From positions 96,001-160,000 of the forward strand of contig JBNRMN010000034.1 of the NCBI GenBank assembly GCA_050309605.1: DNA of 64,000 nucleotides, written 5' to 3'. Shown here in pieces: positions 33,628 through 57,685 of the stretch. The first letter of the stretch is position 1, and the number at the start of each line of letters is the position of its first letter. The translations under genes and the position numbers were made by a program. The notes under the pieces were generated by a model that was not told the DNA's origin, did not search any database, and saw only the letters and a list, made by a program, of their open reading frames with translations. Source of the DNA: Anaerohalosphaeraceae bacterium (lineage in GTDB: Bacteria > Planctomycetota > Phycisphaerae > Sedimentisphaerales > Anaerohalosphaeraceae).

Positions 33628-33644
33628 GGTTATTCTCGTAAATG

Positions 33645-34441: not shown

Positions 34442-34454
34442 AGTGAAGGAAAAA

Positions 34455-34469
34455 GCAAGGGGTGTGCCA
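34455..34469 (-). promoter_or_regulatory. sigma54 (-24/-12) promoter of the ORP-like operon
   Basis: TGGCACACCCCTTGC, a consensus TGGCAC-N5-TTGC. Confidence 0.88.
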
Positions 34470-34558
34470 GACGCTATTGCTCTCAACTGGTTTTATCTAA
34501 CTTCTTATAAAAAAAGGAATTAAAGAAGCCTGAAGAAAATGGGAACGAGGAAGATAGC

Positions 34559-34604
34559 TTGCGTTATGCAATGAATGGGTTTTCCTGGTCATTGCAAAAT
34601 ACAA
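34559..34604. promoter_or_regulatory. paired upstream activator sites for the OrpR-like regulator
   Basis: TTGCGTTATGCAA (34559-34571) and TTGCAAAATACAA (34592-34604); same palindrome as 35966-35978. Confidence 0.7.
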
Positions 34605-34614
34605 GGGAAGCTGG

Positions 34615-35943
34615 CTAAGCGGACTCCATTTCCACATCGAGTTTTTTGAGTTTGCGGAACAGGGTACTGGGGTCGATGCCCAGCGCCCGGGCGGCGGCGG
34701 TGCGGTTGCCGTTGTGCTGTCGCAGAGACTGGACAATCATCATCTTTTCCATCTGTTCCAGTGTCTGAATGCCTTGGTTGCCGGCTGCGGCATGTGAGGA
34801 AGGGTTCAAAAACGGCGGCAGATGGGCCGCCTCGATGATATCACCCGAACACAGAACAAAACAATGCTCAATGATATTTTCCAGTTCGCGGATATTGCCG
34901 GCAAAGTCATACGCCAGCAGGGCCGCCATCGCCTCGCTGCTGAACCCGCAGATGTTTTTATTGTAGCGTGCGTTGAATTGGCCGATAAAATGCTCGGCCA
35001 ACAGCGGAATGTCTTCGCGGCGTTCCTTCAGCGGCGGCAGGGAAAGCTTGACTACATTGATGCGATAGTACAGATCGCTTCGAAATGTACCCTGCTTGAC
35101 CTGCTCATCCAGGTTCTTATTCGTGGCGGTAATGATGCGTACATCGGCTTTTTCGGTTGCAATGCCGCCGACCGGCTCATAGGTCTTTTCCTGAAGGACG
35201 CGAAGCAATTTGACCTGCACCGCCGGCGAAACGTCGCCGATCTCGTCGAGAAACAGTACCCCCCCCTCGGCCAGCTTGAATCGCCCCGGCTTATCCTTTT
35301 TGGCGTCGGTAAACGCCCCGGCCTTGTAGCCGAACAGCTCCGACTCCAGCAGCGTATCCGGCAGCGCACCGCAGTTGACCGCAATAAACGGCTTATCCCT
35401 GCGACCGCTCAGACTGTGAATCGCGCGAGCAAAAAGCTCTTTACCCGTTCCCGTTTGTCCCTCGATTAATACCGAACAGTCGCTTTGGGCAATCTGCGGC
35501 AGGACATGGAACAGCTCCTGAATCCGGTGATTCCGACTGACAATGTCCTCAAAGGTATATTGTTTCCGGAGCTGTTTTTGAAGTTGTTCAACCAACGTCA
35601 TATCGCGGAATGTCTCAACGCCTCCGATGACATGGCCGTTTTTATCTTTCAGCAGGGCCGTGGAGATGCTGACGGCCTTTTGTCGGCCTTCGACATCGAT
35701 GATATGCACCGGCCTGTTCAAGACGGGACGACCGGTATCCATTGTTTCGCGTAACGCACACCCTGACTCACAGACGTCGGCCCGCAACACCTCCCGGCAA
35801 GGCCGACCAATGGCCTGCTCACGAGAAATCCCCGTGATTTTCTCCGCGGCAAGGTTAAAATAAGTCACCTTCCAACCAGCATCTACGGTAAACACGCCTT
35901 CCGTAATCGAATCCAACACGATATCTTTTACAACCTTGTCCAT
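34615..35943 (-). CDS. sigma54-dependent PAS-AAA+-Fis activator (OrpR-like)
   Basis: PAS with C-x8-C-x3-C ([14 protein letters not shown]), [27 protein letters not shown], Fis HTH. Confidence 0.92.
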
Positions 35944-35945
35944 AA

Positions 35946-35978
35946 ATGCATAATACATGAAACTATTGCAAAATGCAA
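35946..35978 (-). promoter_or_regulatory. sigma70-type promoter of the OrpR-like gene overlapped by an operator palindrome
   Basis: Minus strand TTGCAT-N17-TATTAT-6nt-ATG; TTGCAAAATGCAA palindrome covers the -35. Confidence 0.65.
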
Positions 35979-39959: not shown

Positions 39960-40846
39960 AACTCCGATTCGAAATCCTTGCGCAGCAGTTCAAGCAGATA
40001 CCGTGCGGCTTTGACTAAGTGTTTGTCTTTGCGTATGATAATACCGGTAGGGCGATAAAAGTGTTCATTGGTAAACGCCACCGCTTTCAGGGTGCCGGCC
40101 GCCAGTTCGCTTCGAAGACAAGGCTTGGGAAGAATGCTGATCCCCGCATTGATTTCAACCGCTCGTTTGATGGTTTCAACGTTATCAAACTCCATCAGGA
40201 CGCGAACCGGAACATTGTATTTTTTCAGAATGGTATCCACGTGTCGTCGGGTTGGAACTTCGGCGGAAAAAGCGATAAATTTTTCTCCCTGAAGCTGATG
40301 AATATCAATTTCATATTCCTTCGCAAAAGGATGTTCCGGCGCACAGACCAGCAGCAGCGTTTCATTTTCAAACGGATAGACCTCAATGTTCTTGTCGCGA
40401 TGCGGCAGGGCGACCACGCCGATATCAATACCGCCGCGAAGCAGCCGATCATAAATATCCTTGGCGTTTTGATATTCTATGGATAGATTGACATCCGGGT
40501 AAATGCCCATAAATTTTTTGACATACGGCTGAAGGGTGTGCATGCCGATACTGAAGATGGCCGCCAGATGAATTTTACAGCTTTGACGGCTAAGCTGAAC
40601 AATCTCACTGTTGAGCCGCTGATAGCGTTCAATGATATCCCGACAGGCCTTCAGGAAGATTTCCCCCGCGGCGGTCAGTTCAATGGGGCGTTTTTTGCGA
40701 TCCACCAACTGAACATTGTATTCCATTTCCAGTTGAGCGATTTGCTGTGAAACCGCCGATTGGCTGATGCCGTGTATCTCGGCGGCGCGAGAAAAATTTT
40801 TCAATTCCACTACATCACAAAAAAGTTTGGCGGTTTCCAGATTCAT
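39956..40846 (-). CDS. LysR-family transcriptional regulator (divergent from gdhA)
   Basis: NFSRAAEIHGISQSAVSQQIAQLE HTH; substrate-binding domain. Confidence 0.95.
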   Translation of the reverse strand: MNLETAKLFCDVVELKNFSRAAEIHGISQSAVSQQIAQLEMEYNVQLVDRKKRPIELTAAGEIFLKACRDIIERYQRLNSEIVQLSRQSCKIHLAAIFSIGMHTLQPYVKKFMGIYPDVNLSIEYQNAKDIYDRLLRGGIDIGVVALPHRDKNIEVYPFENETLLLVCAPEHPFAKEYEIDIHQLQGEKFIAFSAEVPTRRHVDTILKKYNVPVRVLMEFDNVETIKRAVEINAGISILPKPCLRSELAAGTLKAVAFTNEHFYRPTGIIIRKDKHLVKAARYLLELLRKDFESEL

Positions 40847-41071
40847 AATAAGATTTTCTAATTCGAGGTATTCCAAAAGATAATTTGTGATAACCACGTT
40901 CTAAAATTATTATAAGTTACTTTAATTTTACTGTAAACAAAAAAAATACAAGCACGGCTGCAGGACGTGTTTTAGAGAAAAAGAGATGTGAAAGCCCCTG
41001 ATTTTGTCATCTATACTTTGGGGGTTTTCGGACAACTGAATGGCTTTTAGATTTGAAAAATCGGAGGTTAG

Positions 41072-42427
<1,356 letters not shown>

Positions 42428-42452
42428 TTGGTGCGTGATTGACGGATAGACC

Positions 42453-42488
42453 AAAGCCCCTTTTCGACATGTCGAAAAGGGGCTTTTT
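42453..42488 (+). terminator. terminator after gdhA (34-bp perfect palindrome)
   Basis: AAAGCCCCTTTTCGACATGTCGAAAAGGGGCTTT followed by TT. Confidence 0.8.
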
Positions 42489-42581
42489 ACATTTCACGAT
42501 AACAAATTGCTATTTATGCGGATTTGCACGTCGAAAATCAAGCATTTCCTTAAAAAAATGCGCTCAAATCAGTTTTACCCA

Positions 42582-42635
42582 TTGCCGTTTGTGTTACGAA
42601 ATTGTAAAATTCGGCATTATGAACAACAAAATTGT
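42582..42635 (+). promoter_or_regulatory. sigma70 promoter of the NifA-like gene with two ACA-W4-TGT-type sites
   Basis: TTGCCG-N17-TAAAAT; sites ACGAAATTGT (42596) and ACAAAATTGT (42626). Confidence 0.65.
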
Positions 42636-42676
42636 ATATTGCTCTGGGGACTCATTTCGTCCTGAAAGGCTGTATC

Positions 42677-44200
42677 ATGGCTAAAAAACTTGCACGAGAG
42701 GTGGAACTGCTGGCGGATGTCGCCAAGGCGTTTGCCGAGTCGCTGCATTTGGAAGCAACGCTGGAGTCGATCCTCAAGGCCCTCGAAATCCACGTCAGCC
42801 TCGAGCGCGGGGCGATTACCCTGCTGGATGCCGACAGCGAGATGATCACCATCAAGGTTGCGCACGGTCTGAGTGAAGAGTCCAAAAAGCAGATTACCTA
42901 TAAAGTTGGTGAAGGCGTAACCGGCCTGGTGGTCCAAAGCGGCAAAGAGGTGGTCGTACCGGACATCAGCAAAGACCCGCGATTTCTGGCCAAAACCGGA
43001 CGGCGAACACGAACCAAAGGCCAAAAAATCGCTTTTTTTTGTGTCCCGATCAAACTGGAAGGTAAAACCATCGGTGCAATCAGCGTGGACCGCAAGGTCC
43101 GCAGCGGCGACGATTTCGACGCCCATGTTCGGTTGCTGGAAGTCGTGGCCACGATGATTGCCCAAGCGGTCAAACTGAACAAATTGGTTGAAAACGATCG
43201 GATGGAACTGCGGACCCAGAACGAACGATTGCTGCGCGAATTAAAAACCCGGTTCAATATTCATAATATGATCGGTACCAGCAGCGCCATGGTTGAGGTC
43301 TATCGCTTGATTGAGCAGGTCGCCAACAGCAACGCCACGGTACTGATTCGCGGCGAAAGCGGCACCGGCAAAGATCTTGTCGCGCACGCCATTCATTACA
43401 ACAGCTACCGGGCCGAAAAACCGTTTGTCAAGGTCAATTGCACGGCCCTGCCGGAAAACCTGCTCGAAAGCGAGTTGTTCGGCCACGAAAAGGGGGCCTT
43501 TACTGGTGCGGTCGAACGCAAACCGGGACGATTTGAGTTGGCCAACGGGGGCACCATCTTTTTAGATGAGATCGGCGATTTTTCGCTGAATCTCCAGGTC
43601 AAGCTGCTTCGCGTCATCCAGTTTAAGGAATTCGAGCGCGTCGGCGGTTATGAGACCATTAAATCGAATGTTCGCATTATCGTGGCCACCAACAAAAACC
43701 TCGAAGAAGATATCAAAAACGGCCTGTTTCGCGAAGACTTGTATTATCGTATCAACGTGTTCCCGATTTATATGCCGCCGCTGCGCGACCGGAAGAACGA
43801 TGTGATGCTGCTGGCGGATTTCTTCCTCGAAAAGTATGCGCGCGAAAACGGCAAAGGCATTAACCGGATTTCCACACCGGCCATTGAGATGCTGACCAGT
43901 TATCATTGGCCGGGCAATGTGCGCGAACTGGAAAACTGTATTGAGCGGGCGGTGCTGTTGTGTGATGAGGATGTGATTCGCTCCGATCATTTGCCGCCGT
44001 CGCTGCAGATGGTACGCAAAACGCAGCCAAGCGATGGCTTGACCCTGCCCGAAAAGGTAGAAAATCTTGAACGTGAAATGATCGTTGACGCCCTGAAAAA
44101 AACCGGCGGTTGTCAGCGGCGTGCTGCGGTGGAACTGGGGGTTACTCAGCGCATCCTCGGCTACAAAATCAAAAAATACACCATCCTTCATCGCGACTGA
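42677..44200 (+). CDS. NifA-like GAF-AAA+-HTH sigma54 activator
   Basis: GAF ([15 protein letters not shown]...DPRFL...FFCVPI), [27 protein letters not shown]; no REC domain. Confidence 0.92.
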
Positions 44201-44220
44201 GAAGATTCAGTCCGTAAATT

Positions 44221-44368
44221 ACAAAATTGTCCCAATAATAAAAATGTTTTACATTATTGTAACATAATCTCTGTATGTCCGCGCCTCCCTGTCCTTTTTT
44301 TAACTCATTGTATAAAATGAGTTTATGATTTTTTTATTAAGACTCCCCGCATATGGAACACGCCTTGC
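44221..44368 (+). promoter_or_regulatory. sigma54 promoter plus paired activator sites (porin-amtB1-glnK1)
   Basis: ACAAAATTGT 44221, ACATTATTGT 44251; TGGAACACGCCTTGC 44354-44368. Confidence 0.8.
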
Positions 44369-44468
44369 TATTTCCAGTATCGTGCTTTGATTGTGAAACA
44401 GGCCTGTTCACGCACGATCGTATGGAAACAATGTAAACAATGAAAACAATGAATCAGGAGAATGTAAA

Positions 44469-45224
44469 ATGAGTGTCAAAAAAACAGCGATGTTGAGTGT
44501 ACTGATGGTGTGTGGGGCGTGTGCTTATGCCGAGTCCGTCGAGATTGATGTAACGGCGGATTTTTTCGGCAAGTACATCTGGCGTGGACAGAATCTGAAT
44601 AATTCAACGGTCTTTCAGCCGGGTGTGGGGGTATCCTATGCCGGCTTGACCGGCGCAGTCTGGGGGAATCTGGATATGACCGATTCCAACGGCGAGCGCG
44701 GCGAGTTTACAGAGTGGGATTTTTCGCTGGATTACACCGTCGCGCTGCCGGGCGCAGAGGGGGTGGATGTCTCGATCGGACTGATCCATTACCACTTCCC
44801 AAGCACTCGGCCGAGCAATACCACCGAGGTGTATTGGGGATTCGAGTTTGATCTTCCGCTTACTCCGTCGATTACCGTATATCACGACGTAGATTCGTTC
44901 AACGGGACGTATGTCTCGCTGGGCGTCGGGCATCATTTCGAAGAATTGTTCCGTCTGAGTCCTCAGATGCCGGTCGGCCTGGATATCGGCGTTAGTGCCG
45001 GATGGGGCAATGCGCAATACAACGGCGATTACTGGGACGTTAAAAACAGCAAACTGAACGACTTGACGGTCTCGCTGGCCTTTCCGATGGATGTAGCGGG
45101 CTGGACGGTCTCGCCGAGCGTCAATTATGTCACGCTTTTGAATAACCGTATTCGCGCGTCGGATGAATACGCTCAAAAGAGCGATTACCTGTTCGCGGGA
45201 TTAAGCGTGTCCAAAAGCTTTTAG
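44469..45224 (+). CDS. putative outer-membrane beta-barrel porin (TorF/TIGR02001-like)
   Basis: Signal peptide, KYIWRGQ, VFQP, EWDFSLDY, amphipathic strands, C-terminal Phe. Confidence 0.75.
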   Translation: MSVKKTAMLSVLMVCGACAYAESVEIDVTADFFGKYIWRGQNLNNSTVFQPGVGVSYAGLTGAVWGNLDMTDSNGERGEFTEWDFSLDYTVALPGAEGVDVSIGLIHYHFPSTRPSNTTEVYWGFEFDLPLTPSITVYHDVDSFNGTYVSLGVGHHFEELFRLSPQMPVGLDIGVSAGWGNAQYNGDYWDVKNSKLNDLTVSLAFPMDVAGWTVSPSVNYVTLLNNRIRASDEYAQKSDYLFAGLSVSKSF

Positions 45225-45254
45225 ATGAAACAAAACGAGATGAGCACATAAGGA

Positions 45255-46625
45255 ATGTATAAAATGAATGACATCCGAGAGAATAAAGGTTGTGGTCGTT
45301 CAGGATTATGGACGGTGGTGTTGATGCTTGCGATAGGTTCTTCAGCGGCGTCGGCGCAGGACGTGTCGGCGGTCGCAGACATCGAAGCGGTACGCGATGA
45401 ATTGCAGTTGAACCTGGATATAGTCTGGACATGTATTGCCGCGTTTTTGGTGTTCTTTATGCAGGCCGGCTTTGCAATGGTCGAGAGCGGTTTTACGCGG
45501 GCCAAAAACGCCGTCAATATCATTATGAAGAATCTGATGGATTTTTCGGTCGGTTCGCTGGCGTTTTATTTGGTGGGTTTCGGGCTGATGTTCGGAGCCA
45601 CCAACGGTCTGTTCGGCACGACGCTGTTTGGACTGAACGGCATCGAGCCGGGAACGGATTGGAACTGGACGTTTCTGATATTTCAGACGGTTTTTGCCGC
45701 CACCGCCGCGACGATTGTTTCCGGCGCGATGGCCGAACGCACCAAATTTATCAGCTATCTGGCGTACAGTGTCTGTATCACGCTGTTGATTTATCCGATT
45801 TTAGGGTCCTGGGCGTGGGGCGGGCTGCTCGACGGCGGCGGCTGGCTGGAAAATCTGGGCTTTCTGGACTTTGCCGGATCGACCGTGGTTCATTCGGTCG
45901 GCGGCTGGCTGGCCCTGGCTGGGGCCGTTATCCTTGGCCCGCGCATCGGAAAGTATGGCCGAGATGGAAGGCCCAAGGCGATTCTGGGCCACAATATTCC
46001 GTTGGCGGCGCTGGGGGTGTTTATCCTGTGGTTCGGCTGGTTCGGCTTTAATCCCGGCAGCACCACCGCCGGCGACGGTTCCATCGGCTATATCGCCGTG
46101 ACGACCAATCTGGCTGCGGCCGCGGGGGCGGTTGCCGCGATGATTACCTCGTGGATTTTACTGAAAAAGCCGGACGGCTCCATGGCCCTCAACGGGGCGC
46201 TGGCGGGACTGGTATCCATTACCGCACCATGCGACGGCGTCACCCCGACAGGGGCGATTCTAATCGGATTGATCGGCGGTGTATTGGTCGTATTAAGCGT
46301 CTTGTTTATTGACCATATATTGAAAGTGGACGATCCGGTCGGGGCGGTCAGCGTCCACGGCGTTTGCGGCGCGTGGGGCACACTGTCGGCGGGGTTGTTC
46401 AATATGGAAACAGGCCTGTTTTATGGCGGCGGAATCGGACAGTTGGCGATTCAGGCTCTCGGCGCGGCGGCGGCCTTTGCGTGGGCGTTCGGCCTTGGTT
46501 TACTGATGTTCTGGACGATCAGCAGGACCATCGGTCTGCGTGTCAGCCCGGAAGAAGAAATGAAGGGGCTGGACATCGGCGAACACGGGATGGAAGCATA
46601 CAGCGGATTCCAGATTTTCAGTTAA
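45255..46625 (+). CDS. amtB: ammonium transporter
   Basis: [41 protein letters not shown] (twin His kept). Confidence 0.97.
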   Translation: MYKMNDIRENKGCGRSGLWTVVLMLAIGSSAASAQDVSAVADIEAVRDELQLNLDIVWTCIAAFLVFFMQAGFAMVESGFTRAKNAVNIIMKNLMDFSVGSLAFYLVGFGLMFGATNGLFGTTLFGLNGIEPGTDWNWTFLIFQTVFAATAATIVSGAMAERTKFISYLAYSVCITLLIYPILGSWAWGGLLDGGGWLENLGFLDFAGSTVVHSVGGWLALAGAVILGPRIGKYGRDGRPKAILGHNIPLAALGVFILWFGWFGFNPGSTTAGDGSIGYIAVTTNLAAAAGAVAAMITSWILLKKPDGSMALNGALAGLVSITAPCDGVTPTGAILIGLIGGVLVVLSVLFIDHILKVDDPVGAVSVHGVCGAWGTLSAGLFNMETGLFYGGGIGQLAIQALGAAAAFAWAFGLGLLMFWTISRTIGLRVSPEEEMKGLDIGEHGMEAYSGFQIFS

Positions 46626-46657
46626 TCCTAATCCCTCAGATGATCGGAGTATGAACG

Positions 46658-46999
46658 ATGAAGCTTATCATTGCCTATATACAGCCGCACAAGCTGGACG
46701 ATGTCAAGAAGTCGCTGACACAGGCGGATGTCGGGAAAATGTCAGTGACCAACTCCCTCGGATGCGGCGCGCAGAATGGCTACCATGAGAGTTATCGCGG
46801 CGTTGAGTTCGATGTCAACCTGCTCAAGAAGATTCGTCTCGAGATCGCCGTCAACGAAGAGTTTGTGCTGAAAACGATTGATGCGATCATCACGGCGGCC
46901 CGAACCGGTCAAATCGGCGACGGCAAAATTTTCGTGCTCGACCTGGTCGAGTGCATCCGAATCAGGACGGGAGAACGCGGGCGGGCAGCCATCGGATAG
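46658..46999 (+). CDS. glnK: P-II family nitrogen regulator
   Basis: T-loop [24 protein letters not shown]. Confidence 0.95.
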
Positions 47000-47039
47000 C
47001 CCCGCGTCATTGAATCGGGTCGGAAAACACGGAGAAGTT

Positions 47040-47186
47040 ACAAATTTGTCGTTAAATTGTACTGGCGCTACATAAATGTTGAATTTCTCGTGAAAATTCG
47101 ACCCGATCATTTTCATCATAACCTTATTTTATAAACAGGCTTATGAAACGAACAGCGGCGGAATCAGTGACTGGCATACCGTTTGC
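47040..47186 (+). promoter_or_regulatory. sigma54 promoter plus paired activator sites (amtB2-glnK2)
   Basis: ACAAATTTGT 47040, ACATAAATGT 47070; TGGCATACCGTTTGC 47172-47186. Confidence 0.8.
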
Positions 47187-47259
47187 AAATGTGACATGCA
47201 AGGTTTCTGCCAACGTTGGTGGTACGTGAGTGGGTTTCTGGACAACAGGAGAATGATTT

Positions 47260-48630
47260 GTGAGCGGATTACGAACAGCAAAAAAAACGACTCTTATGCG
47301 GCTCATCGGGGTGGGTTTTCTGTGCCTGATGCTGTCCGGCTCAGCCGCATACGCATCGGAGGACCCGGCATTGAATCTGGCGGAATTGCAGCAGGGATTA
47401 GATACGGTGTGGGTCTTGATCGGGGCGTTTCTGGTGTTCTTTATGCAGGCCGGCTTCGGCATGGTCGAGGCCGGGTTTATTCGCGCCAAGAACACCTGCA
47501 ACATCTTGACTAAAAACTTTCTGGATTTCTGCATGGCTTCACTGGGTTTTTTTCTGGTCGGCTATGCACTGATGTTCGGCAACGGCAACGGCTTTATCGG
47601 CACCAGCGGATGGATGCTCATCGGGCTGGAGCCATGGGTCGGTACTGTGCCGCTGTTTGCCTTCTGGCTGTTTCAAGCGGCCTTCTGTGGTGCGGCAGCG
47701 ACGATTGTGGCCGGTGGTATGGCCGAGCGGATGAATTTCAAGGCGTACCTGATTTATTCTTTTCTGATCTCGGCGCTGGTGTATCCGATCATCGGCCATT
47801 GGGTCTGGGGCGAAGGATGGCTCAGCTCGATGGGATTTGCCGATTTTGCCGGTTCGACTGTTGTGCATACGACCGGCGGGATTGCGGCGTTGATCGGAAC
47901 GATGATGCTGGGACCGCGCTACGGCAAGTACGGCATCGACGGCAAGCCGCGTGCAATTGCCGGACACAATATCCCGCTGGCGTCGCTGGGCGTGTTCATT
48001 CTGTGGTTTGGCTGGTTCGGATTTAATTCCGGTTCTACGCTGGGTGTCGAAAGCGGCGGCCTGGACATCGCTCGTGTGGCGATCAACACCAACCTGGCCG
48101 CGGCGCTCGGCGGCATTGCAGCCATGGCAACCGTTTGGATCCGGTTCGGCAAGCCGGATTTGTCGATGGCGATGAACGGGGCGTTGGCCGGACTGGTCGG
48201 GATTACCGCGCCGTGTGCGTTTGTCGAGCCGTGGGCGGCCTGCCTGATCGGTCTGTCCAGCGGTGTGATTGTCGTCTTCGGTGTCGAATTGCTGGATAAG
48301 CTGCAAATCGACGATCCGGTGGGTGCCGTGCCCGTACATGGCCTGTGCGGCATCTGGGGCACGCTGTGTGTGGGTATTTTCGGCAAGGCCGAGTTGGGGC
48401 TGACGTATCCGGGTTTTGTCTATAGCGGCAATCCGATGCAGTTTGGAATCCAGATGGTCGGCAGTGTGGCAACGGTGGTTTTTGTGCTGGCCACAATGGG
48501 CATAATTTTTAAGCTCATCGATTTGACCGTCGGTCTGCGGGTTAACCGTACCGAAGAGCTGCGCGGTCTGGATATCGGCGAACATGGGATGGAAGCCTAT
48601 AACGGATTCCAGATTTTCAGCACGATGTAA
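47260..48630 (+). CDS. amtB: ammonium transporter (second paralog)
   Basis: [40 protein letters not shown]. Confidence 0.97.
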
Positions 48631-48659
48631 ATACAACTTCAATACAACGGAGTAACAAA

Positions 48660-49001
48660 ATGAAACTGATTATTGCTTATATTCAGCCGCATAAGCTGGA
48701 CGATGTCAAAAAGTCGCTGACCAAGGCCGATGTCGGCAAGATGTCGGTCACCAACTCGCTGGGCTGCGGTGAACAGATGGGCTACGAAGAAAGTTATCGC
48801 GGCATACGCTTTGAGGTCAATCTGCTCAAAAAGGTGCGGCTGGAAATCGCTGTCAACGAGGATTATGTTCAGCGCACGATCGACGCCGTCATTGAGGGCG
48901 CGCGCACCGGTGAGATCGGCGACGGCAAAATCTTCATTCTTGATCTGGCCGACTGTGTCCGGATTCGCACAGGCGCACGCGGCACCAAGGCCATCGGGTG
49001 A
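48660..49001 (+). CDS. glnK: P-II family nitrogen regulator (second paralog)
   Basis: [23 protein letters not shown]. Confidence 0.95.
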
Positions 49002-49022
49002 AGCGGACCCGACATTGATGTT

Positions 49023-49168
49023 ACAATTTTGTTTTGTCGGCCTTACTTTCTTGACAATTTTGTAATATTCGTGGATGCCCCGTATTGCTTTAAGTGTGAT
49101 GTAAGCTTTTGTAAATTAAGGTTTTAAGCTAAAAATAATTGAATTGAACGCAATGGCACACAAGTTGC
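49023..49168 (+). promoter_or_regulatory. sigma54 promoter plus paired activator sites (glutamine synthetase)
   Basis: ACAATTTTGT 49023 and 49054; TGGCACACAAGTTGC 49154-49168. Confidence 0.82.
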
Positions 49169-49404
49169 TCTATAGATTAACCGACATTAGCAAAGAAATA
49201 AACCGGGTGTTTCGAAAGGTGCGCCATGCAACGAGGCACCCAACATGATAGCGGCGATTGTGTCGGCGTCGCACTCGGATACGGCATTCGCAGAGACACA
49301 CTTGCGAGTGCTTATGAAAGAAAGTATAATTTACCCGTTTATGGGGAATAGCCGCTGCTCAATTCGGCTTAAACCCATTTCATGAGATGATCAGATGACC
49401 AGGA

Positions 49405-51504
49405 GTGAAAATGAGTAACCAAATCAAATTAAATGAGATTTTCGGGGTTAATGTATTTAACGATGCCGTGATGCGGCTGCGGCTGCCGAAAATGATTTAT
49501 CGTGATTTTGTCAAGGTTCGCAACGGCCAATCGGAGATGACGCAGTCCATTGCCGATATTCTGGCCAACGCGATGAAAGACTGGGCGCTGGAGCACGGGG
49601 CCACTCATTATTGCCACTGGTTCCAGCCGATGACAGGGCTGACCGCAGAAAAGCATGATTCGTTCATCTCGCCGTCTCCGGACGGACGCACCATACTCGA
49701 ATTCAGCGGCAAAGAACTGATTAAGGGAGAGCCGGATGCGTCCTCTTTTCCCTCCGGCGGACTGCGGGCAACGTTTGAGGCGCGCGGCTATACGGCCTGG
49801 GATTACACGTCGCCGGTGTTCATCAAGGGCAAAACGCTTTATATTCCCTCGGCGTTTTGTTCTTATACCGGCCAGGCGCTGGACAAGAAAACGCCGCTGC
49901 TGCGCTCGATGGAAGCGCTGAACAAGCAGTCGCTTCGCGTTTTGCGGGCACTGGGAGAAACGGCCGCGGGGTATGTCAACGCCACGTTGGGGCCGGAACA
50001 GGAATATTTTCTGGTGGACCGCGCATTTTTTGAGAAACGTTTGGATCTGCTGCTCAGCGGCCGAACCCTGTTCGGGGCGCCGTCGCCTCGCGGCCAGGAA
50101 ATGGAAGACCATTACTTCGGCTCGGTCCATGAACGGGTTTTGGCGTTTATGAACGATGTGAACCAGGAATTGTGGAAGCTGGGCGTTTCGGCCAAAACCC
50201 AGCATAATGAAGTTGCACCGGCCCAGTATGAAATAGCGCCGATCTTTACCACTGTTAATGTGGCGACCGACCACAATCAGATTACGATGGAAACACTGCA
50301 AAAGATCGCCCGCCGGCATGGGTTCGTGTGCCTTCTGCATGAGAAACCGTTTGCCGGCGTCAATGGCTCTGGCAAACACAATAACTGGTCTCTGGTAACG
50401 GATACCGGGAACAATCTGCTTGAGCCGGGCAGCACGCCGCATGATAACATGGTGTTTCTGGTGTTTTTGTGCGCTGTGGTACGTGCGGTTGACAAATACG
50501 CCCGGCTGCTGCGTGCGGCAGTGGCCAATCCGGGTAATGAACATCGGCTTGGCGCCAACGAGGCGCCGCCGGCGATTGTGTCGATCTTCCTCGGCGATCA
50601 GTTGACGGATATTTTCGATCAGCTTGCCGCCGGCGGTGTAAAAACCAGTCGGCAGGGCGGAAGCCTTAAGCTGGGCACGTCTCTGCTGCCGCCGCTGCCA
50701 AAGGACTGCACCGATCGCAACCGAACCAGCCCGTTCGCTTTTACCGGCAACAAGTTTGAGTTCCGTATGGTCGGGTCAAGCCAATCCACTTCGGGGCCGT
50801 GTTTTGTGCTCAATACGATGGTGGCCGATGTGTTGATGGAATTTGCCGATGTGCTCGAAAAAAGCAAAGATGTTAAGGGCGAAGCACAGAAACTGCTTAA
50901 GCGCGTCGCTACCGAACATGTGCGGGTCATCTTCAACGGCGACAACTATTGTCAGGACTGGGTCCAAGAGGCCGAACGTCGCGGGCTGCCCAATATGCGT
51001 TCCACGGTGGAATCGCTGGATGTGATCCTCAACAAAGAACATGTTGAGTTGTTCAAACGGCACGGCGTGCTCAGTAAGCACGAACTGCACGCCCGCACTG
51101 AGATATTGTACGAAAACTACAGCAAAACACTGAACATCGAGGCCGGCGTAACGCTGGAAATCGCCAAACGGCAGATTCTCCCGGCCTGCATCCGGTACGC
51201 AACGCGATTGGCCGAGTCGGTCAACAAATTGGCAGAGACGGGAATCACGCCGGCCGTGCCGAAACGAGAACTGGAAAAGGTCAACAGTCTGATTGAAGAC
51301 CTCAGCAGCGCCATTGATGCACTCGAAACAGCGGTCGGTAAGGCCAAGGCGGTTGACAAGGCCCCGGATAAGGCCCGAAGTTTTCGGGACGATGTGATCC
51401 CGGCGATGGCTGAAGTGCGAAAGGCTGCCGACACACTCGAAACCATCGTGGACGCTGAGGTGTGGCCGCTGCCCAGTTACGCCCAGATGCTGTTCCTGCG
51501 ATAG
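49405..51504 (+). CDS. glnN: glutamine synthetase type III
   Basis: [74 protein letters not shown]. Confidence 0.96.
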
Positions 51505-51537
51505 CCGCCGTTTTTAATATGCTCAAAAAGTACCCCT

Positions 51538-51575
51538 CCTGCCGGGCGTAATTCTCATGCTCGGCAGGTTTTTTT
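51538..51575 (+). terminator. intrinsic terminator after GSIII
   Basis: CCTGCCGGGCGT/ATGCTCGGCAGG stem plus T7. Confidence 0.8.
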
Positions 51576-51630
51576 GTGTCTTTTTAACATAAGTCGATCT
51601 AATCGAAAAATAAATCGTAGTAATAAATCA

Positions 51631-51659
51631 TTGACTTAACGGGACAAGTTAATTACACT
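51631..51659 (+). promoter_or_regulatory. sigma70-type promoter of gltBD-nadE
   Basis: TTGACT-N17-TACACT. Confidence 0.6.
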
Positions 51660-51696
51660 TGCGATGAAATGAAACAACAAGACAGATCTATTTATT

Positions 51697-54600
51697 ATGG
51701 ACAGACAATCAATGTTATCGGTACCGATAGAATTCGGCCTCTATGAAGCCCGTCGGGAACATGACGCCTGCGGAATCGGGGCGGTCGTCAATATCTCCGG
51801 TAAGCGTGATCACTCGATCATTGAATACGGCAAGCAGATTCTGCTGAACCTGCATCATCGCGGCGCAGCCGGAGCAGACGATGTTACCGGCGACGGAGCG
51901 GGGATATTGACGCAAATTCCACATCCGTTTTTCTCTGATGAAGTCAAACGATTGGGGTTTTCGCTGAACGCGCCGGGGCAGTACGGCGTCGGGATGGTTT
52001 TTGCGCCTCAGGACGCCGAGCTTCGCGGCCAATGTATGCGCCTGCTTGAGAAGGCGGTGTCCGACTATGGCTTAACGCTGCTTGGGCGACGGGATGTACC
52101 GACCGATCATTCCTGTTTGGGTGATATTGCCCTGTCCGCTGAGCCGACGAGCCACCAGATCTTTATCGACGGGGCGGGGCTGTCCGATGAAGCGCTGGAA
52201 CGACGGTTGTATCTGATTCGCCGACGTGCTGAACGACTGGTGCATGAACAGTTTGGACAAAAGGCTGAAGATTTTTACATCGTCTCGCTGTCATGCCGAA
52301 CTATTTGCTATAAAGGGATGTTTATGGCCTGGCAGTTGTTTGCTTACTATCCCGACCTGGCGGATAAACGGTTTGTTTCGGCGCTGGCAACGGTCCATCA
52401 GCGATACAGTACGAATACTTTTCCGAGCTGGCGTTTGGCCCAGCCGTTTCGCTGCATTGCTCACAATGGCGAAATCAACACCCTCAGCGGAAACCGCAAT
52501 TGTATGCGAATGCGTGAAACACGTCTGTCCAGTGCACTGCTGGGCGCGGATTTGTCGGATGTTGTGCCGGTGCTGGACGACAACGACAGCGATTCGGCCT
52601 GCTTTGACCGAATGCTTGAATTGCTGGTTCGCGCCGGACGAAGCCTGCCGCATGCGATGATGATGCTGATCCCTGAAGCGTTCGGCCCCAAGTATCATAT
52701 CAGCGCCGACAAACGGGCGTTCTATGAGTATCATTCGACTATTATGGAGCCGTGGGACGGCCCGGCGGCGATGGTCTTTACCGACGGGCGGCTGCTGGGC
52801 GGCACGCTGGATCGCAACGGGCTGCGGCCGAGCCGCTACACAATAACCACCGACGGGCTGGCGATTCTGGCCAGTGAGACGGGCGTGGTGGAATTTCCGC
52901 CGGAAAAAGTACGTCAAAAGGGACGTCTTCAGCCCGGCAAAATGTTTCTGGTTGATACGGTCGAGGGACGCATCGTAACCGACAATGAAATTAAGAGCAA
53001 GGTCTCCCGGCAAAAGCCCTATCGCCGCTGGCTCAATGAGAATCGGATTGAGCTGCGCGGGCTGTTTGATACGCCGCATCTTGAACCCGGTGATCCGGCG
53101 ACACTGGCTGCGCGGATGCGGCTGTTCGGCTATACGCGTGAGGAATTGCGAATGGTTCTTGCCCCGATGGCGATCCACGGACAGGAACCGGTCGGTTCAA
53201 TGGGCAATGACGCCGCACCGGCGGTCTTGAGTGACCGTCCTCGGCTGCTGTATGACTACTTCAAACAGTTGTTTGCCCAAGTGACCAATCCGCCGATCGA
53301 CCCGTTGCGCGAGGGGCTGGTGATGAGTCTGATGAGCTACACCGGCAAAAAGCTGAATCTGCTCGACGAGTCGCCGCCGCATTGCCGACAGCTAAAGCTG
53401 CCGCATCCGATTCTGACCAATGAGGATATGGTCCGATTGCGCGCGGTCAAACGCAGTGATTTCAGCGTACAGACCCTCGATGCCGTCTTTGTACCTGACC
53501 CGTCTGATGGCACACTGGGACTGGAGCAGGCTATAGCGCGGCTGATTAACGACGCGCAGCATGCGATTGAGCAGGACGGCGCATCGCTGCTGATTCTCAG
53601 CGACAAGGCCGCTGATGAACACAGGATGCCGATTCCGGCCCTGCTGGCGGTGTCGGCAGTGCATCACGGCCTGATCGAGCGCGGGCTGCGCGGCGAGGCC
53701 GGATTGATCGTCGAAACCGGCGAGGCACGCGAGGTGATGCATTTTTGTCTGCTGTGCGGCTACGGCGCCAACGGCGTCAATCCCTATTTGGTTTTTGAAA
53801 CGCTCAATGAACTGCACCAAAGCCGCCAGCTTCCGCCCGAGCTTGACGCCACGCAGATTGCCGATAATTATATCGCCTCTATCAAAAAAGGTATCCTCAA
53901 GACCATGAGCAAAATGGGTATCTCAACGCTGCGCAGTTATTTCAATGCCCAGCTTTTTGAGGCCATCGGTCTGCACAAGCAGTTGGTTCAGCGCTACTTT
54001 ACCGGAACCAGCTCGCGCATCGGAGGAATCGGCCTGGAACAGATCGCCCGGGATATCCAGGCACGCCATCAAGCGGCGTTTTCGCCGCCTCGGCCGGGAT
54101 CGCTTGATTTGGATTTCGGCGGGGAGTACCACTACCGTCAGGACGGCGAGCGGCACTTGTGGAATCCGGAAACCGTGGCCCGGCTTCAGCACGCCGTGGT
54201 CAACAACGACGCCGATGCGTATGCACAGTTTTCCCGTGCGGTCAATGACCAGTCCGAAAAACTCTACACACTGCGCGGATTGTTTGAGTTCGTGCCCGGT
54301 GAATCGGTGCCGCTGGACGAAGTGGAGCCGGCCTCCGAGATAGTCAAGCGGTTTTGCAGCGGGGCGATGAGCCATGGTTCAATCAGCAAGGAAGCCCATG
54401 AATGTATGGCGATTGCGATGAATCGGCTCGGTGCGATGAGCAATACCGGCGAAGGGGGCGAAGACGAAGAGCGGTATGTTTTGGAGCCGAACGGCGATTC
54501 GAAAAACAGCGCGATCAAACAGGTCGCCAGCGGTCGATTCGGGGTCACCATCAACTATCTGGCTCACGCGCGGGAAATCCAGATCAAGATGGCCCAAGGC

Positions 54601-56271
54601 GCAAAACCCGGCGAAGGGGGCCAGCTTCCCGGCAAGAAAGTTACCGAAGAAATCGCTCGTCTGCGGCATGCCACGCCCGGCGTAACCCTGATTTCGCCGC
54701 CGCCGCATCATGATATTTATTCCATTGAAGATTTGGCGCAGTTGATCTACGATCTGAAGTGCAGTAATCCCGATGCAAAAGTTTCGGTCAAGCTGGTCTC
54801 CGAGGTCGGCGTCGGGACGATTGCCGCGGGGGTGGCCAAGGGCAACGCTGACGAGGTGCTCATCAGCGGGCATGACGGCGGCACCGGTGCCAGTCCGCTG
54901 TCGTCCATTAAACACGCCGGCTGTCCCTGGGAAATCGGACTGGCCGAGACCCAGCAGGTACTGGTGATGAATCGTCTGCGTGATCGCATTCGCGTCCAGA
55001 CCGACGGGCAGCTTCGCACGGGACGGGATATTGTCATCGCGGCGCTGCTGGGCGCTGAGCAATTTGGTTTCGGCACGGGGATTCTTGTTACGATGGGCTG
55101 TACGCTGCTGCGCAAGTGCCATGAGGGGGCGTGCACCTACGGCATCGCCACACAGGACCCCGAACTGCGCCGGCGGTTTGCGGGAAAGCCCGAATACATT
55201 GAACGCTATCTGTTGTTTGTGGCTCAAGAAGTTCGGCGCATCATGGCTGAACTGGGATTTCGCACTGTCAATGAGATGGTGGGGCGATGGGATCGGCTTG
55301 GTATGCGCAAGGCCATTGAACATTACAAGGCCAGGGGTCTGGATTTCTCGACGGTGTTTGATCAGCCGGTTCCGACAGACCCCCGACAGCGATACAATTC
55401 CGGCGCTCAGGTCAGACGTCTGGACGATCATTTGGATTGGAACATTATGAAAGAAGTTGAATCGGCCGTTCAAACCGCCCAGCCGACGGCAATCGAGATG
55501 CCCATTAAAAATACCAACCGAACCGTCGGAACCATTCTGAGCCATCGAATCGTCAAACAACACGGCCAAAACGGCCTGCCGGATGATACGATCCAACTGA
55601 CTTTCCGCGGCTCAGCCGGACAGAGCTTCGGTGCCTTTCTGGCATCAGGCGTAACACTGCACCTGATCGGCGACAGCAATGACTATCTGGGCAAGGGACT
55701 TAGCGGCGGTCGCATCATCGTTGAGACCCCGCCGGGGTCAATGTATATGGCCCACGAAAACATCATCGTCGGCAATACAGTGCTTTACGGTGCGACAAGC
55801 GGCGAAGTTTTCATCAACGGGATGGCCGGCGAACGATTTTGCGTCCGCAACAGCGGGGCAACCGCCGTCGTGGAAGGCGTCGGCGACCATGGCTGCGAAT
55901 ATATGACCGGCGGCCTGGTCGTGGTGCTCGGCAAAACCGGCTGCAACTTCGCAGCCGGGATGAGCGGCGGCATTGCCTATGTCCTGGATGAAATGCAGTT
56001 GTTTGACACGTTATGCAATTTGGATATGGTCGATCTGGAGAGCGTCTGGCGTCAGGAAGACAAAGACCTGCTGTATCGGATGGTGCAAAAACATGAGCGG
56101 CTGACCCGCAGCACCCGCGCCCAGCGGATCCTGAGTTCCTGGCAGGATTCGGTCAGTCGATTCGTCAAGGTCATACCGATTGACTACCGCAAGGCCCTTG
56201 AACGTATGCGGCAGGCCGAGGCACGCGATACCGAGACGACTCCGGCAACCGAGGAGGTGTTCCATGGCTAA
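51697..56271 (+). CDS. gltB: glutamate synthase large subunit
   Basis: EHDA-CGIG processing site, HQRYSTNT, MEPWDGP, QVASGRFG, AQGAKPGEGGQLP, GXGXG repeats. Confidence 0.98.
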   Translation: MDRQSMLSVPIEFGLYEARREHDACGIGAVVNISGKRDHSIIEYGKQILLNLHHRGAAGADDVTGDGAGILTQIPHPFFSDEVKRLGFSLNAPGQYGVGMVFAPQDAELRGQCMRLLEKAVSDYGLTLLGRRDVPTDHSCLGDIALSAEPTSHQIFIDGAGLSDEALERRLYLIRRRAERLVHEQFGQKAEDFYIVSLSCRTICYKGMFMAWQLFAYYPDLADKRFVSALATVHQRYSTNTFPSWRLAQPFRCIAHNGEINTLSGNRNCMRMRETRLSSALLGADLSDVVPVLDDNDSDSACFDRMLELLVRAGRSLPHAMMMLIPEAFGPKYHISADKRAFYEYHSTIMEPWDGPAAMVFTDGRLLGGTLDRNGLRPSRYTITTDGLAILASETGVVEFPPEKVRQKGRLQPGKMFLVDTVEGRIVTDNEIKSKVSRQKPYRRWLNENRIELRGLFDTPHLEPGDPATLAARMRLFGYTREELRMVLAPMAIHGQEPVGSMGNDAAPAVLSDRPRLLYDYFKQLFAQVTNPPIDPLREGLVMSLMSYTGKKLNLLDESPPHCRQLKLPHPILTNEDMVRLRAVKRSDFSVQTLDAVFVPDPSDGTLGLEQAIARLINDAQHAIEQDGASLLILSDKAADEHRMPIPALLAVSAVHHGLIERGLRGEAGLIVETGEAREVMHFCLLCGYGANGVNPYLVFETLNELHQSRQLPPELDATQIADNYIASIKKGILKTMSKMGISTLRSYFNAQLFEAIGLHKQLVQRYFTGTSSRIGGIGLEQIARDIQARHQAAFSPPRPGSLDLDFGGEYHYRQDGERHLWNPETVARLQHAVVNNDADAYAQFSRAVNDQSEKLYTLRGLFEFVPGESVPLDEVEPASEIVKRFCSGAMSHGSISKEAHECMAIAMNRLGAMSNTGEGGEDEERYVLEPNGDSKNSAIKQVASGRFGVTINYLAHAREIQIKMAQGAKPGEGGQLPGKKVTEEIARLRHATPGVTLISPPPHHDIYSIEDLAQLIYDLKCSNPDAKVSVKLVSEVGVGTIAAGVAKGNADEVLISGHDGGTGASPLSSIKHAGCPWEIGLAETQQVLVMNRLRDRIRVQTDGQLRTGRDIVIAALLGAEQFGFGTGILVTMGCTLLRKCHEGACTYGIATQDPELRRRFAGKPEYIERYLLFVAQEVRRIMAELGFRTVNEMVGRWDRLGMRKAIEHYKARGLDFSTVFDQPVPTDPRQRYNSGAQVRRLDDHLDWNIMKEVESAVQTAQPTAIEMPIKNTNRTVGTILSHRIVKQHGQNGLPDDTIQLTFRGSAGQSFGAFLASGVTLHLIGDSNDYLGKGLSGGRIIVETPPGSMYMAHENIIVGNTVLYGATSGEVFINGMAGERFCVRNSGATAVVEGVGDHGCEYMTGGLVVVLGKTGCNFAAGMSGGIAYVLDEMQLFDTLCNLDMVDLESVWRQEDKDLLYRMVQKHERLTRSTRAQRILSSWQDSVSRFVKVIPIDYRKALERMRQAEARDTETTPATEEVFHG

Positions 56272-57685
56272 AATCAAAGGCTTTCTTGACTATCGCCGAC
56301 AGCCGGTCGGGTATCGTCCGATTGACCAGCGCGTCACGGATTTTCGGGAAATTGAGATTCCGCTGACCCCCGATGCGATTCAGCAGCAGGCCGCTCGTTG
56401 TGCCGACTGCGGCATTCCGTTTTGTCATAGCGCATTCGGCTGTCCGGTAGCCAATCGTATCCCTGAATTTAATGATATGGTGTACCTGGGACAGTGGAAA
56501 CAGGCCTGCGAAAACCTGCATTCAACGAACAATTTTCCTGAAATTACCGGTCGGGTTTGTCCGGCGCCGTGCGAGACGGCCTGTACGCTGGCGGTCAACG
56601 ATGAGCCGGTTTTGATACGGCATATCGAATTTCAGATTGTCGAGCGGGGATTTGCCGAAGGCTGGATCGAACCGCTCAAACCCGCACACAAAACCGGCAA
56701 ACGCATTGCAGTGATTGGTTCCGGACCGGCGGGACTGGCTGCCGCTCAGCAGCTTGCCCGCGCCGGGCACAGCGTAACGGTCTTTGAACGCGACGACAGG
56801 CCGGGCGGTCTGTTGCGGTACGGCATCCCCGATTTTAAGCTCGAAAAGTGGGTTCTTGACCGTCGTCTGAGCCAAATGGCCGACGAGGGGGTGGATTTCC
56901 AGACCGGTGTTGATGTCGGCCGGGATATTTCCGCAGCGTATTTGTGCAAGCGGTACGATGCGGTGTGTCTGGCAACGGGAGCTACCCGACCGCGCGATTT
57001 GGCGGTGCCGGGGCGGGGATTTGAAAATATTGTGTTCGCAATGGAGTTTCTCAAACGGCAAAATCAACGGATTTCCGGCGAGATCACGGAGACCGAATCG
57101 AGCTTGAATGCCCGCGATAAAGATGTTATAGTCATTGGCGGCGGTGATACGGGCAGCGACTGTGTCGGCACGGCGCGTCGGCAGGGTGCCAAGTCGATTA
57201 CCCAGCTTGAGATTCTGCCCAAACCGCCCGAAACGCGACCGACGGATACGCCCTGGCCGACGTGGCCGCGGACGATGCGAACCAGTTCCAGCCACGAAGA
57301 GGGGTGCCGGCGGATATGGAGTGTGATGACGACGCGATTTACAGGAACCGAAACCCGTGTGAGTCAACTTCACGGCGTACAGGTCGAGTGGGTCAAAAAG
57401 AACAACCGGTGGGCGGCGGTTGAAATGCCGGGTACGGAATTCTCTTTGCCGGCGGATGTGGTGCTGCTGGCGATGGGCTTCGTACACGTCGAACACGAGC
57501 CGCTGGTATCGGATTTGGGACTGGAACTGGACGACCGCGCCAATATCCGGGTCGCGGATTATCAGACCAGTAATCCCATGGTTTTCTCGGCCGGCGACGC
57601 GGTACTGGGCGCATCGCTGGTCGTGCGGGCGATTGACGGCGGACGACAGGCTGCCGCGGCGATTGATAAATGGCTTTCAAGATAA
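56264..57685 (+). CDS. gltD: glutamate synthase small subunit
   Basis: CADCGIPFC, GRVCPAPCE, IGSGPAG, IGGGDTGSDC; ATG overlaps the gltB end. Confidence 0.97.
   Translation: MAKIKGFLDYRRQPVGYRPIDQRVTDFREIEIPLTPDAIQQQAARCADCGIPFCHSAFGCPVANRIPEFNDMVYLGQWKQACENLHSTNNFPEITGRVCPAPCETACTLAVNDEPVLIRHIEFQIVERGFAEGWIEPLKPAHKTGKRIAVIGSGPAGLAAAQQLARAGHSVTVFERDDRPGGLLRYGIPDFKLEKWVLDRRLSQMADEGVDFQTGVDVGRDISAAYLCKRYDAVCLATGATRPRDLAVPGRGFENIVFAMEFLKRQNQRISGEITETESSLNARDKDVIVIGGGDTGSDCVGTARRQGAKSITQLEILPKPPETRPTDTPWPTWPRTMRTSSSHEEGCRRIWSVMTTRFTGTETRVSQLHGVQVEWVKKNNRWAAVEMPGTEFSLPADVVLLAMGFVHVEHEPLVSDLGLELDDRANIRVADYQTSNPMVFSAGDAVLGASLVVRAIDGGRQAAAAIDKWLSR

Follow-up and report, generated by a model that had tools for sequence, protein, structure and literature searches.

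A NifA-like one-component activator and its paired sites: a candidate circuit for ammonium assimilation in a nitrogenase-less planctomycete

Introduction

How does a planctomycete without nitrogenase switch on its ammonium transporters and glutamine synthetase, and what is a regulator that public databases call NifA doing beside them? The question is posed by a locus at positions 42582..51504 of a 64,000-nt stretch of DNA (the window; position 1 is its first letter) from an Anaerohalosphaeraceae bacterium, GCA_050309605.1, contig JBNRMN010000034.1, forward strand 96,001-160,000. The genome of the source organism measures 3.4 Mb, with 54.5% G+C, and is 99.73% complete. At the head of the locus stands a gene for a sigma54-dependent activator, in which a GAF domain is followed by an AAA+ domain and a helix-turn-helix (HTH); after it come a porin-like gene, two amtB-glnK pairs and a type III glutamine synthetase (GSIII).

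The answer that seems most likely is that the organism turns on its ammonium transporters and glutamine synthetase through this NifA-labelled regulator and a set of paired palindromic sites. That is, the protein would act as the master activator of an ammonium-assimilation module that is small and self-contained, would repress its own gene, and would be gated through its GAF domain by nitrogen status; we put the probability of this reading at roughly 80%. The features on which it draws are these.

42582..42610, + strand: sigma70-like promoter of the regulator gene, TTGCCG-17 bp-TAAAAT (consensus scan, 9/12 matches, consensus match only)
42596..42635, no strand: candidate operator pair at the regulator promoter, ACGAAATTGT at 42596 (1 mismatch) and ACAAAATTGT at 42626, 30 bp apart (motif scan)
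42677..44200, + strand: GAF-AAA+(GAFTGA)-HTH_8 sigma54 activator, 507 aa, ATG at 42677, public name NifA (Pfam)
44221..44260, no strand: candidate enhancer pair 1, ACAAAATTGT and ACATTATTGT, 30 bp apart (motif scan)
44354..44369, + strand: predicted sigma54 promoter P1, TGGAACACGCCTTGCT, for porin-amtB1-glnK1 (-24/-12 pattern)
44469..45224, + strand: porin-like outer-membrane protein (weak Gcw_chp match, E 3.9e-4, below cut-off)
45255..46625, + strand: AmtB ammonium transporter 1 (PF00909, 427 bits)
46658..46999, + strand: GlnK (PII) 1, Phe at T-loop position 51 (Pfam)
47040..47079, no strand: candidate enhancer pair 2, ACAAATTTGT and ACATAAATGT, 30 bp apart (motif scan)
47172..47187, + strand: predicted sigma54 promoter P2, TGGCATACCGTTTGCA, for amtB2-glnK2 (-24/-12 pattern)
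47260..48630, + strand: AmtB ammonium transporter 2 (PF00909, 440 bits)
48660..49001, + strand: GlnK (PII) 2, Phe at T-loop position 51 (Pfam)
49023..49063, no strand: candidate enhancer pair 3, ACAATTTTGT in two copies, 31 bp apart (motif scan)
49154..49169, + strand: predicted sigma54 promoter P3, TGGCACACAAGTTGCT, for GSIII (-24/-12 pattern)
49405..51504, + strand: GSIII (Pfam)

Palindrome pairs and promoters of the locus

The palindrome ACAWWWWTGT occurs seven times in exact form in the window (42626, 44221, 44251, 47040, 47070, 49023 and 49054), always in one of four intergenic regions; 100 dinucleotide shuffles of the window gave a mean of 0.98 copies and a maximum of 4, and none reached seven. 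An eighth copy, at 42596, carries the one mismatch listed above. Together they make up four pairs, with internal spacings of 30, 30, 30 and 31 bp.

The first-pass annotation of this DNA had set each of three -24/-12 promoters (44354, 47172, 49154) behind such a pair. Motif and promoter scans agree with it, and the distances it gave from the start of the proximal palindrome to the TGG of the canonical -24/-12 box (103, 102 and 100 bp at P1, P2 and P3) are exact on recount; the centres of pair 1 lie at about -155 and -125 relative to the predicted start site. The fourth pair was likewise recovered where it had been placed, over a sigma70 promoter of the GAF-AAA+-HTH gene: it spans the -10 box and the first transcribed bases of the predicted sigma70-like promoter. 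The consensus scan offers a second sigma70-like candidate upstream of the same gene, at 42611-42640.

Across the genome there are 53 exact copies of the palindrome, 7 of which fall within the 6.5-kb locus. If no more than one mismatch is allowed over both sites, four pairs have a spacing of 30 or 31 bp, and every one is in the regulator locus. Just one further exact pair exists (C68:775/816), with its sites 41 bp from each other in coding-looking sequence that has no promoter; it was set aside as chance. A genome scan with a single-site position weight matrix was also discarded: the matrix is circular, because its sites had been picked by their core motif, and isolated matches were indistinguishable from chance, so that no added target is claimed.

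The GSIII leader is a subject of its own. It runs for about 225 nt after P3 (49180-49411) and holds a sigma70-like sequence, TTGCGA-17-TATAAT, at 49302-49330 (10/12). Tandem GSIII promoters would resemble glnAp1/glnAp2 with the order reversed; in orthologues the leader is far shorter. An Rfam search of 40000-57000 found no riboswitch or other RNA element.

Conservation of the design in orthologous loci

Loci orthologous to the regulator locus were collected from metagenome-assembled genomes (MAGs) filed as Phycisphaerae, Sedimentisphaerales, Anaerohalosphaeraceae: 110 in all, or 101 non-redundant after removal of 9 duplicates. Two contigs (L045, L106) and one cluster member (P0004), with regulators 72-92% identical, are filed as Smithella / Calditrichia, and are probably binning errors in public MAGs.

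In the 110 loci, 306 pairs of sites stand 15-60 bp apart, and 237 of these are spaced by 29-31 bp (82 at 29, 141 at 30, 14 at 31); a secondary peak at 59-60 bp corresponds to arrays of three sites. An alignment of the sites shows the full palindrome to be 14 bp long, cTACA-W4-TGTAg. When a strict sigma54 pattern was sought downstream of the pair, the non-redundant loci yielded 83 distinct pair-plus-promoter units, with a promoter consensus of ttTGGCACa-N4-TTGCt (also TGGCAC-N5-TTGC). The proximal site starts 98-104 bp before the TGG in 67 of the 83, so that the pairs about 100 bp ahead of sigma54 sites reported for the window recur widely; the others fall at 88-92 bp (7), 134-135 bp (8) and 111 bp (1). 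Shifts of about 10.5 and about 32 bp separate the off-peak classes from the main one; they amount to roughly one and three turns of the helix, as would be expected if the enhancer has to face its promoter. A third site that could be recognised as such is missing from the 104 position at most promoters of the 134-135 bp class. The 83 aligned regions share conserved A/T blocks, 29-52 bp ahead of the TGG, that resemble a site for IHF.

The genes that follow the arrays are of few kinds. Where the regulator lies on the + strand, an array is followed by the regulator gene (70), a porin gene (51), amtB (40) or GSIII (5), with 30 arrays before unlabelled genes; Pfam searches of 16 of the unlabelled reading frames found glutamine synthetase I (GSI) in 8, GSIII in 3, AmtB in 2 and no family in 3. 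In most of these loci a porin gene is conserved in first place behind the regulator. From the gene content and the Pfam labels, therefore, the regulon is one of ammonium uptake, PII and glutamine synthesis. The regulator gene, too, has a pair in the 200 bp ahead of it in 74 of 101 loci, and no -24/-12 box was found within 250 bp upstream of that pair in any of 70; a pair ahead of the regulator gene with no sigma54 box upstream fits autorepression at a sigma70-type promoter.

Farther afield, the exact pair occurs in 15 of 401 genomes sampled throughout the phylum, against 1 of 401 for a reversed pattern used as control. Eleven loci were inspected from 10 pair-bearing genomes outside the class: five have the regulator, amtB, glnK, glutamine synthetase or gltB beside the pair, and five are unlabelled; the gene context of L118, L119, L120, L122 and L125 was not recognised with nine query proteins.

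Two variant loci may be mentioned here. In a genome from another family of the phylum (G244), a regulator homologue 46% identical is preceded by palindromes and then by a -24/-12 box (L117:4928-6756), an order that would mean positive autoregulation, unlike the sigma70-type arrangement of the source locus. In one group of relatives (L067:8664-10601) the gene behind the porin encodes a 645-aa fusion, an amino-acid (APC) permease with PII as its C-terminal domain, and a free PII gene comes after it. A reading of the two PII-like genes of such loci as nifI adjoining nifH was dropped once the fused permease had been recognised.

Gene content also bears on what the GAF domain reads. One could keep the circuit as described and suppose that the signal is redox state, energy charge or a carbon metabolite, with a regulon that is not a response to nitrogen limitation. 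GAF ligands are diverse; the ligand of Nlh1, a single-GAF protein of Aquifex, is called unknown in the available portion of a review (PMC9866876); and NifA-like activators lie beside nxr genes in Nitrospira, according to an excerpted source, which gives the family roles other than nif. This alternative is improbable when set against a regulon content made up exclusively of ammonium uptake, PII and glutamine synthetase over about a hundred loci, and against the same sites at a nif-linked paralogue of diazotrophic relatives (see below). Nitrogen status is preferred here as the signal for the module.

Co-occurrence of regulator, sites and module

Among 41 relatives (ortholog called at E <= 1e-150, pair as an exact match), 27 have both ortholog and pair, 4 the ortholog without a pair, 3 a pair without the ortholog and 7 neither. 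Five regulator-less relatives, 94-99% complete, have no PII (0/5) and no full AmtB (0/5; one has a 117-aa fragment). Regulator, sites, AmtB and PII are thus jointly present or absent, and the module comes and goes as a unit. The near-complete genomes without regulator, PII or full AmtB are G002, G003, G007, G009 and G030, two of them from the same genus as the source.

It might still be that some other, unlinked factor, a global nitrogen repressor or activator for instance, occupies the palindromes, and that the GAF activator binds another, less conspicuous sequence. Its binding to the palindromes is inferred, ACA-W4-TGT is short and A/T-rich, and three genomes have pairs with no regulator detected. 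Those three exceptions all carry their pairs beside amtB or glutamine synthetase genes: in G014 and G022 they stand at the right distance before amtB-glnK or GSIII, with no regulator found there, and the contig of G006 opens with the last 33 residues of the regulator, followed by pair, promoter, porin, amtB and glnK, the regulator having escaped detection because the contig end cuts its gene. The information profile of the 83 aligned upstream regions has no other conserved block from -90 to -160; the pairs are at enhancer distance and helically phased; the activator's own gene is so often preceded by a pair; and regulator and sites are lost together among relatives. A separate factor is accordingly given little credence, and the GAF activator is kept as the protein that would bind the pairs.

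Identity of the regulator

The first-pass annotation had called the protein a NifA-like activator that lacks a receiver domain, and Pfam bears this out, with GAF, Sigma54_activat and HTH_8 and no receiver. The single GAF domain is placed at residues 27-168 (a numbering 3 too high relative to the 507-aa protein). That length, with the ATG at 42677, emerges from an alignment and is borne out by an identical entry in a protein collection. The AAA+ domain matches Sigma54_activat (PF00158) at 244.5 bits, and its GAFTGA loop is intact in a full-length alignment to a solved NifA, 9qq6_C (E 2e-123). The best solved match of the GAF domain is Aquifex Nlh1 (4g3k, E 4.8e-30), against E 1.7e-16 for the GAF domain of NifA (8jrc). 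The NCBIfam equivalog model for NifA, TIGR01817, scores 547.8 bits against a cut-off of 528.85, a small margin, and the match stops at residue 443 (again 3 too high), before the DNA-binding domain. In its 90% cluster of 29 members, 6 have public names, and 6/6 are called NifA.

NifA binds TGT-N10-ACA at its upstream activating sequence (UAS) and drives nif genes. In the genome PF00148 (NifD/K) has 0 matches, and PF00142 finds P-loop fragments only, at 29 bits or less, with no true NifH; among the relatives, nitrogenase exceeds the cut-off in 4 of 41 and the regulator is present in 31 of 41. TGT-N10-ACA is missing at P1 and P2, the single copy at P3 lies inside glnK2, and the site is not enriched in the orthologous promoters (8/83, at scattered positions, against 4.65 +/- 2.07 in shuffles). 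A NifA-family sequence with no nitrogenase and a UAS that is not enriched therefore falls outside the functional definition of a nif-specific activator.

That the protein is a genuine nif-specific NifA, with its link to amtB and glutamine synthetase incidental, is thus scarcely credible despite the equivalog score, the full-length alignment and the public names: the genome data already contradict it, and diazotrophic relatives have a separate paralogue, adjoining nifH in G021 and G023. By its sequence the regulator is a member of the NifA-like family, and not a nif-specific activator in spite of its database name.

The rest of the nitrogen system

If the regulator is not NifA, the next candidate for comparison is NtrC. 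Full-length matches to enhancer-binding proteins (EBPs) of the sigma54 type number seven in the genome: the regulator, one PAS type, three with receiver domains, one adjoining flagellar genes and one that is degenerate. None reaches the NtrC cut-off of 558.6 bits anywhere in the genome, the best standing at 373. The regulator itself scores 354 bits on the NtrC model (TIGR01818), in the AAA+ part only; its N-terminus is a GAF domain. No kinase gene was seen among the annotated neighbours of the genome's EBPs, and no search aimed at NtrB was made.

GlnD was not found in the genome, and there are two PII genes only, both of them the glnK genes of the locus. T-loop position 51 is the place of the uridylylated tyrosine in enterobacterial PII; in 41 sequences a phenylalanine there is nearly invariant, as in both GlnK proteins of the window. 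With GlnD not found and Phe51 in place, PII in the source genome is probably not uridylylated. The genome does have rpoN (on C67) and one HU/IHF gene.

A proposed mechanism

The circuit could then work as follows. Dimers of the regulator would bind the two 14-bp palindromes, three helical turns apart and centred about 125 and about 155 bp upstream of the start, and the bound dimers would assemble into an active AAA+ ring. An A/T-rich, IHF-like bend would help the ring to touch sigma54-RNA polymerase held closed at the three -24/-12 promoters, and ATP hydrolysis would open them; the outputs driven would be porin-amtB1-glnK1, amtB2-glnK2 and GSIII. At the fourth pair, over the sigma70-type promoter, the protein would most likely repress its own gene, as NtrC does at glnAp1 and glnLp. 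The GAF domain, by analogy with NifA and Aquifex Nlh1, would keep the ATPase off until a signal of nitrogen limitation arrives. NifA proteins offer a parallel for two plausible routes, in which the GAF domain binds 2-oxoglutarate or GlnK exerts control; the signal may be 2-oxoglutarate itself, GlnK from the regulon loaded with 2-oxoglutarate and ATP, or both. The regulator would thus do the job of NtrC with neither NtrB nor a receiver domain.

Several points weigh against this account. Binding, activation and autorepression, like the nature of the signal, are read from features that were observed directly: the sequence elements, their conservation, their geometry and their co-occurrence. The sensing step by the GAF domain is pure analogy. 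The sigma70-like promoter of the regulator gene matches the consensus at only 9 of 12 positions, in a region that gives 7 matches where 5.9 are expected in shuffles. A Fis-type HTH dimer would find little room on half-sites whose centres are only 9 bp apart. Four genomes (G012, G015, G024 and G025) have the ortholog and no pair, in a scan confined to exact matches. Finally, the genome holds three EBPs with receiver domains, and the notion that the regulator replaces NtrBC draws on sub-threshold scores and a missing gene neighbourhood.

On the other side, the three functional proposals of the first-pass annotation find comparative support: activation of porin-amtB-glnK, amtB-glnK and GSIII in the phased pairs at such genes in about a hundred loci, self-repression in the pair ahead of the regulator gene, and a GAF activator in place of NtrBC in a genome, 99.7% complete, where no EBP reaches the NtrC cut-off. 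Judged by these comparisons, the design is real, strongly conserved and mechanistically coherent.

Nitrogenase-bearing relatives

What becomes of the circuit where nitrogenase is present? Three relatives with nitrogenase (G021, G023 and G038) each have a second GAF-type EBP, 45-50% identical to the regulator. G021 and G023 carry it immediately ahead of the nif structural genes, next to nifH; the order in G021 is nifH, two PII-like genes, nifD and nifK, to which G023 adds nifE and nifN. On the NifA model these nif-linked paralogues score 499-506 bits, under the cut-off.

In the same two genomes a -24/-12 box precedes the paralogue gene, and a TACA-W4-TGTA pair with 30-bp spacing runs across its start codon (L131:5553-5711, L132:9423-9593), at roughly +97 to +140 counted from the predicted start site; the pair could be a downstream enhancer or a roadblock. 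Upstream of nifH (L132:7540-7815, L131:7499-7780) there is a canonical sigma54 promoter, and the palindrome is replaced by a different repeated motif, ACAWWTATTTCC, which may be the site of the nif-linked paralogue. This arrangement suggests that nif regulation sits in a cascade below the ammonium regulator in diazotrophic relatives.

A quick tree places the three paralogues, with one homologue from elsewhere in the phylum, inside a subclade of amtB-linked regulators 51-55% identical. The tree has SH-aLRT support only and long outgroup branches; its topology hints that the nif regulator was derived from an assimilation regulator.

A more ambitious hypothesis, tentative and in our estimate somewhat doubtful, takes these observations together for Planctomycetota. 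General nitrogen control would be run there by a one-component activator of the NifA family with its own paired TACA-W4-TGTA enhancer code, reading 2-oxoglutarate and/or non-uridylylatable PII directly, without NtrB, NtrC or GlnD. In diazotrophs it would stand atop a cascade, its sites lying over the start of a nif-linked paralogue that branches within the amtB-linked regulators, and nif-specific control would have arisen from a general ammonium regulator, not the reverse.

Relation to known systems

In enterobacteria NtrC (NR-I) is the sigma54 activator at glnAp2 and glnK-amtB, and represses the sigma70 promoters glnAp1 and glnLp through overlapping sites. In geometry and regulon content the present regulator resembles it: sigma54 activation is predicted at amtB-glnK and glutamine synthetase genes, the paired sites, like the two strong ones of NtrC, lie more than 100 bp upstream and about three helical turns from each other, a sigma70 promoter would be repressed through overlapping sites, and PII proteins take part in the loop. 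Unlike NtrC, the regulator lacks a receiver domain, showed no NtrB partner in its neighbourhood and scores 354 bits where 558.6 are called for; TACA-W4-TGTA is unlike the NtrC site; and the source genome lacks GlnD and has PII proteins without Tyr51. With NifA (TIGR01817; 9qq6) the regulator shares its GAF-AAA+-HTH architecture, an alignment over the full length and a score past the equivalog cut-off; it differs in a genome without nif genes, a regulon of ammonium assimilation and a UAS other than TGT-N10-ACA.

Closer precedents come from GAF-type proteins. Nlh1 of Aquifex aeolicus (GAF structures 4g3k and 4g3w), from a different phylum, is likewise a single-GAF EBP of a non-diazotroph, and supplies the best solved match for the GAF domain. 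In work attributed to Studholme in 2000 it is said to bind about 100 bp upstream of glnBA. Nlh1 has been 'speculated' to control nitrogen assimilation, in the available part of PMC9866876. EbpA of Leptospira interrogans, another GAF-containing EBP that lacks a receiver domain and acts on amtB, binds upstream of that gene and is needed for its transcription with sigma54 and for growth under nitrogen limitation, according to the accessible text of PMC12655853. It differs from the present regulator in being FhlA-like, with two GAF domains rather than one, and in that its other targets are lipoprotein genes; in that same partial text, a paired TACA-W4-TGTA site is not mentioned for EbpA.

A 2025 survey of sigma54 regulons (PMC12316311) discusses Planctomycetota and, in the portion available, calls the conservation of NtrBC there limited; amtB does not occur in that portion. 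Our literature searches found neither the paired TACA-W4-TGTA site nor a NifA-like nitrogen regulon in Planctomycetota described. The first-pass annotation had known of no described example of the combination: this stands for the specific site, the paired geometry and the spread in Planctomycetota, and has to be tempered by EbpA and Nlh1 as partial precedents. A sigma54 activator over ammonium assimilation is classical, GAF-type examples exist, and the circuit is not categorically new. What appears new, from the genomes compared, is the site, the paired and phased geometry, the absence of NtrBC and GlnD, the spread in a poorly known phylum and the systematic misnaming as NifA.

Neighbouring genes

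The locus is flanked by two further genes of nitrogen metabolism.

41075-42427: glutamate dehydrogenase, gdh (Pfam)
51697-56271: 1524-aa open reading frame, called gltB by length and position only

Both were considered as members of the regulon in the window and rejected: sites are absent upstream of each, GSIII is terminated (a terminator-like hairpin lies 3' of it at about 51539-51575), and gltB has sigma70-like boxes of its own.

Elsewhere in the window, on the - strand at 32740-35958, there is a separate sigma54 unit: a PAS-AAA+-HTH activator (34615-35958) with a perfect box, TGGCACACCCCTTGC, at 34455-34469. Downstream in this unit are two small proteins with a Nitro_FeMo-Co domain and an ARMT1-like phosphatase, in a genome that has no nitrogenase.

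Implications

The first consequence concerns annotation. The protein and its close relatives are systematically named 'nif-specific NifA' in organisms that lack nitrogenase. As the true nif-linked paralogue falls under the cut-off of the same model, counts of nifA in metagenomes would mislead as a marker of diazotrophy.

The phased enhancer and the Phe51 PII proteins would be useful for studying how GAF-type EBPs are switched.

For Planctomycetota, nitrogen regulation is essentially uncharted territory, and the textbook scheme of NtrBC and GlnD does not apply to the source genome. The locus offers instead what looks like a compact circuit (one regulator, one site, three promoters and two PII proteins), and a DNA code from which the regulon of some hundred uncultured species can be predicted.

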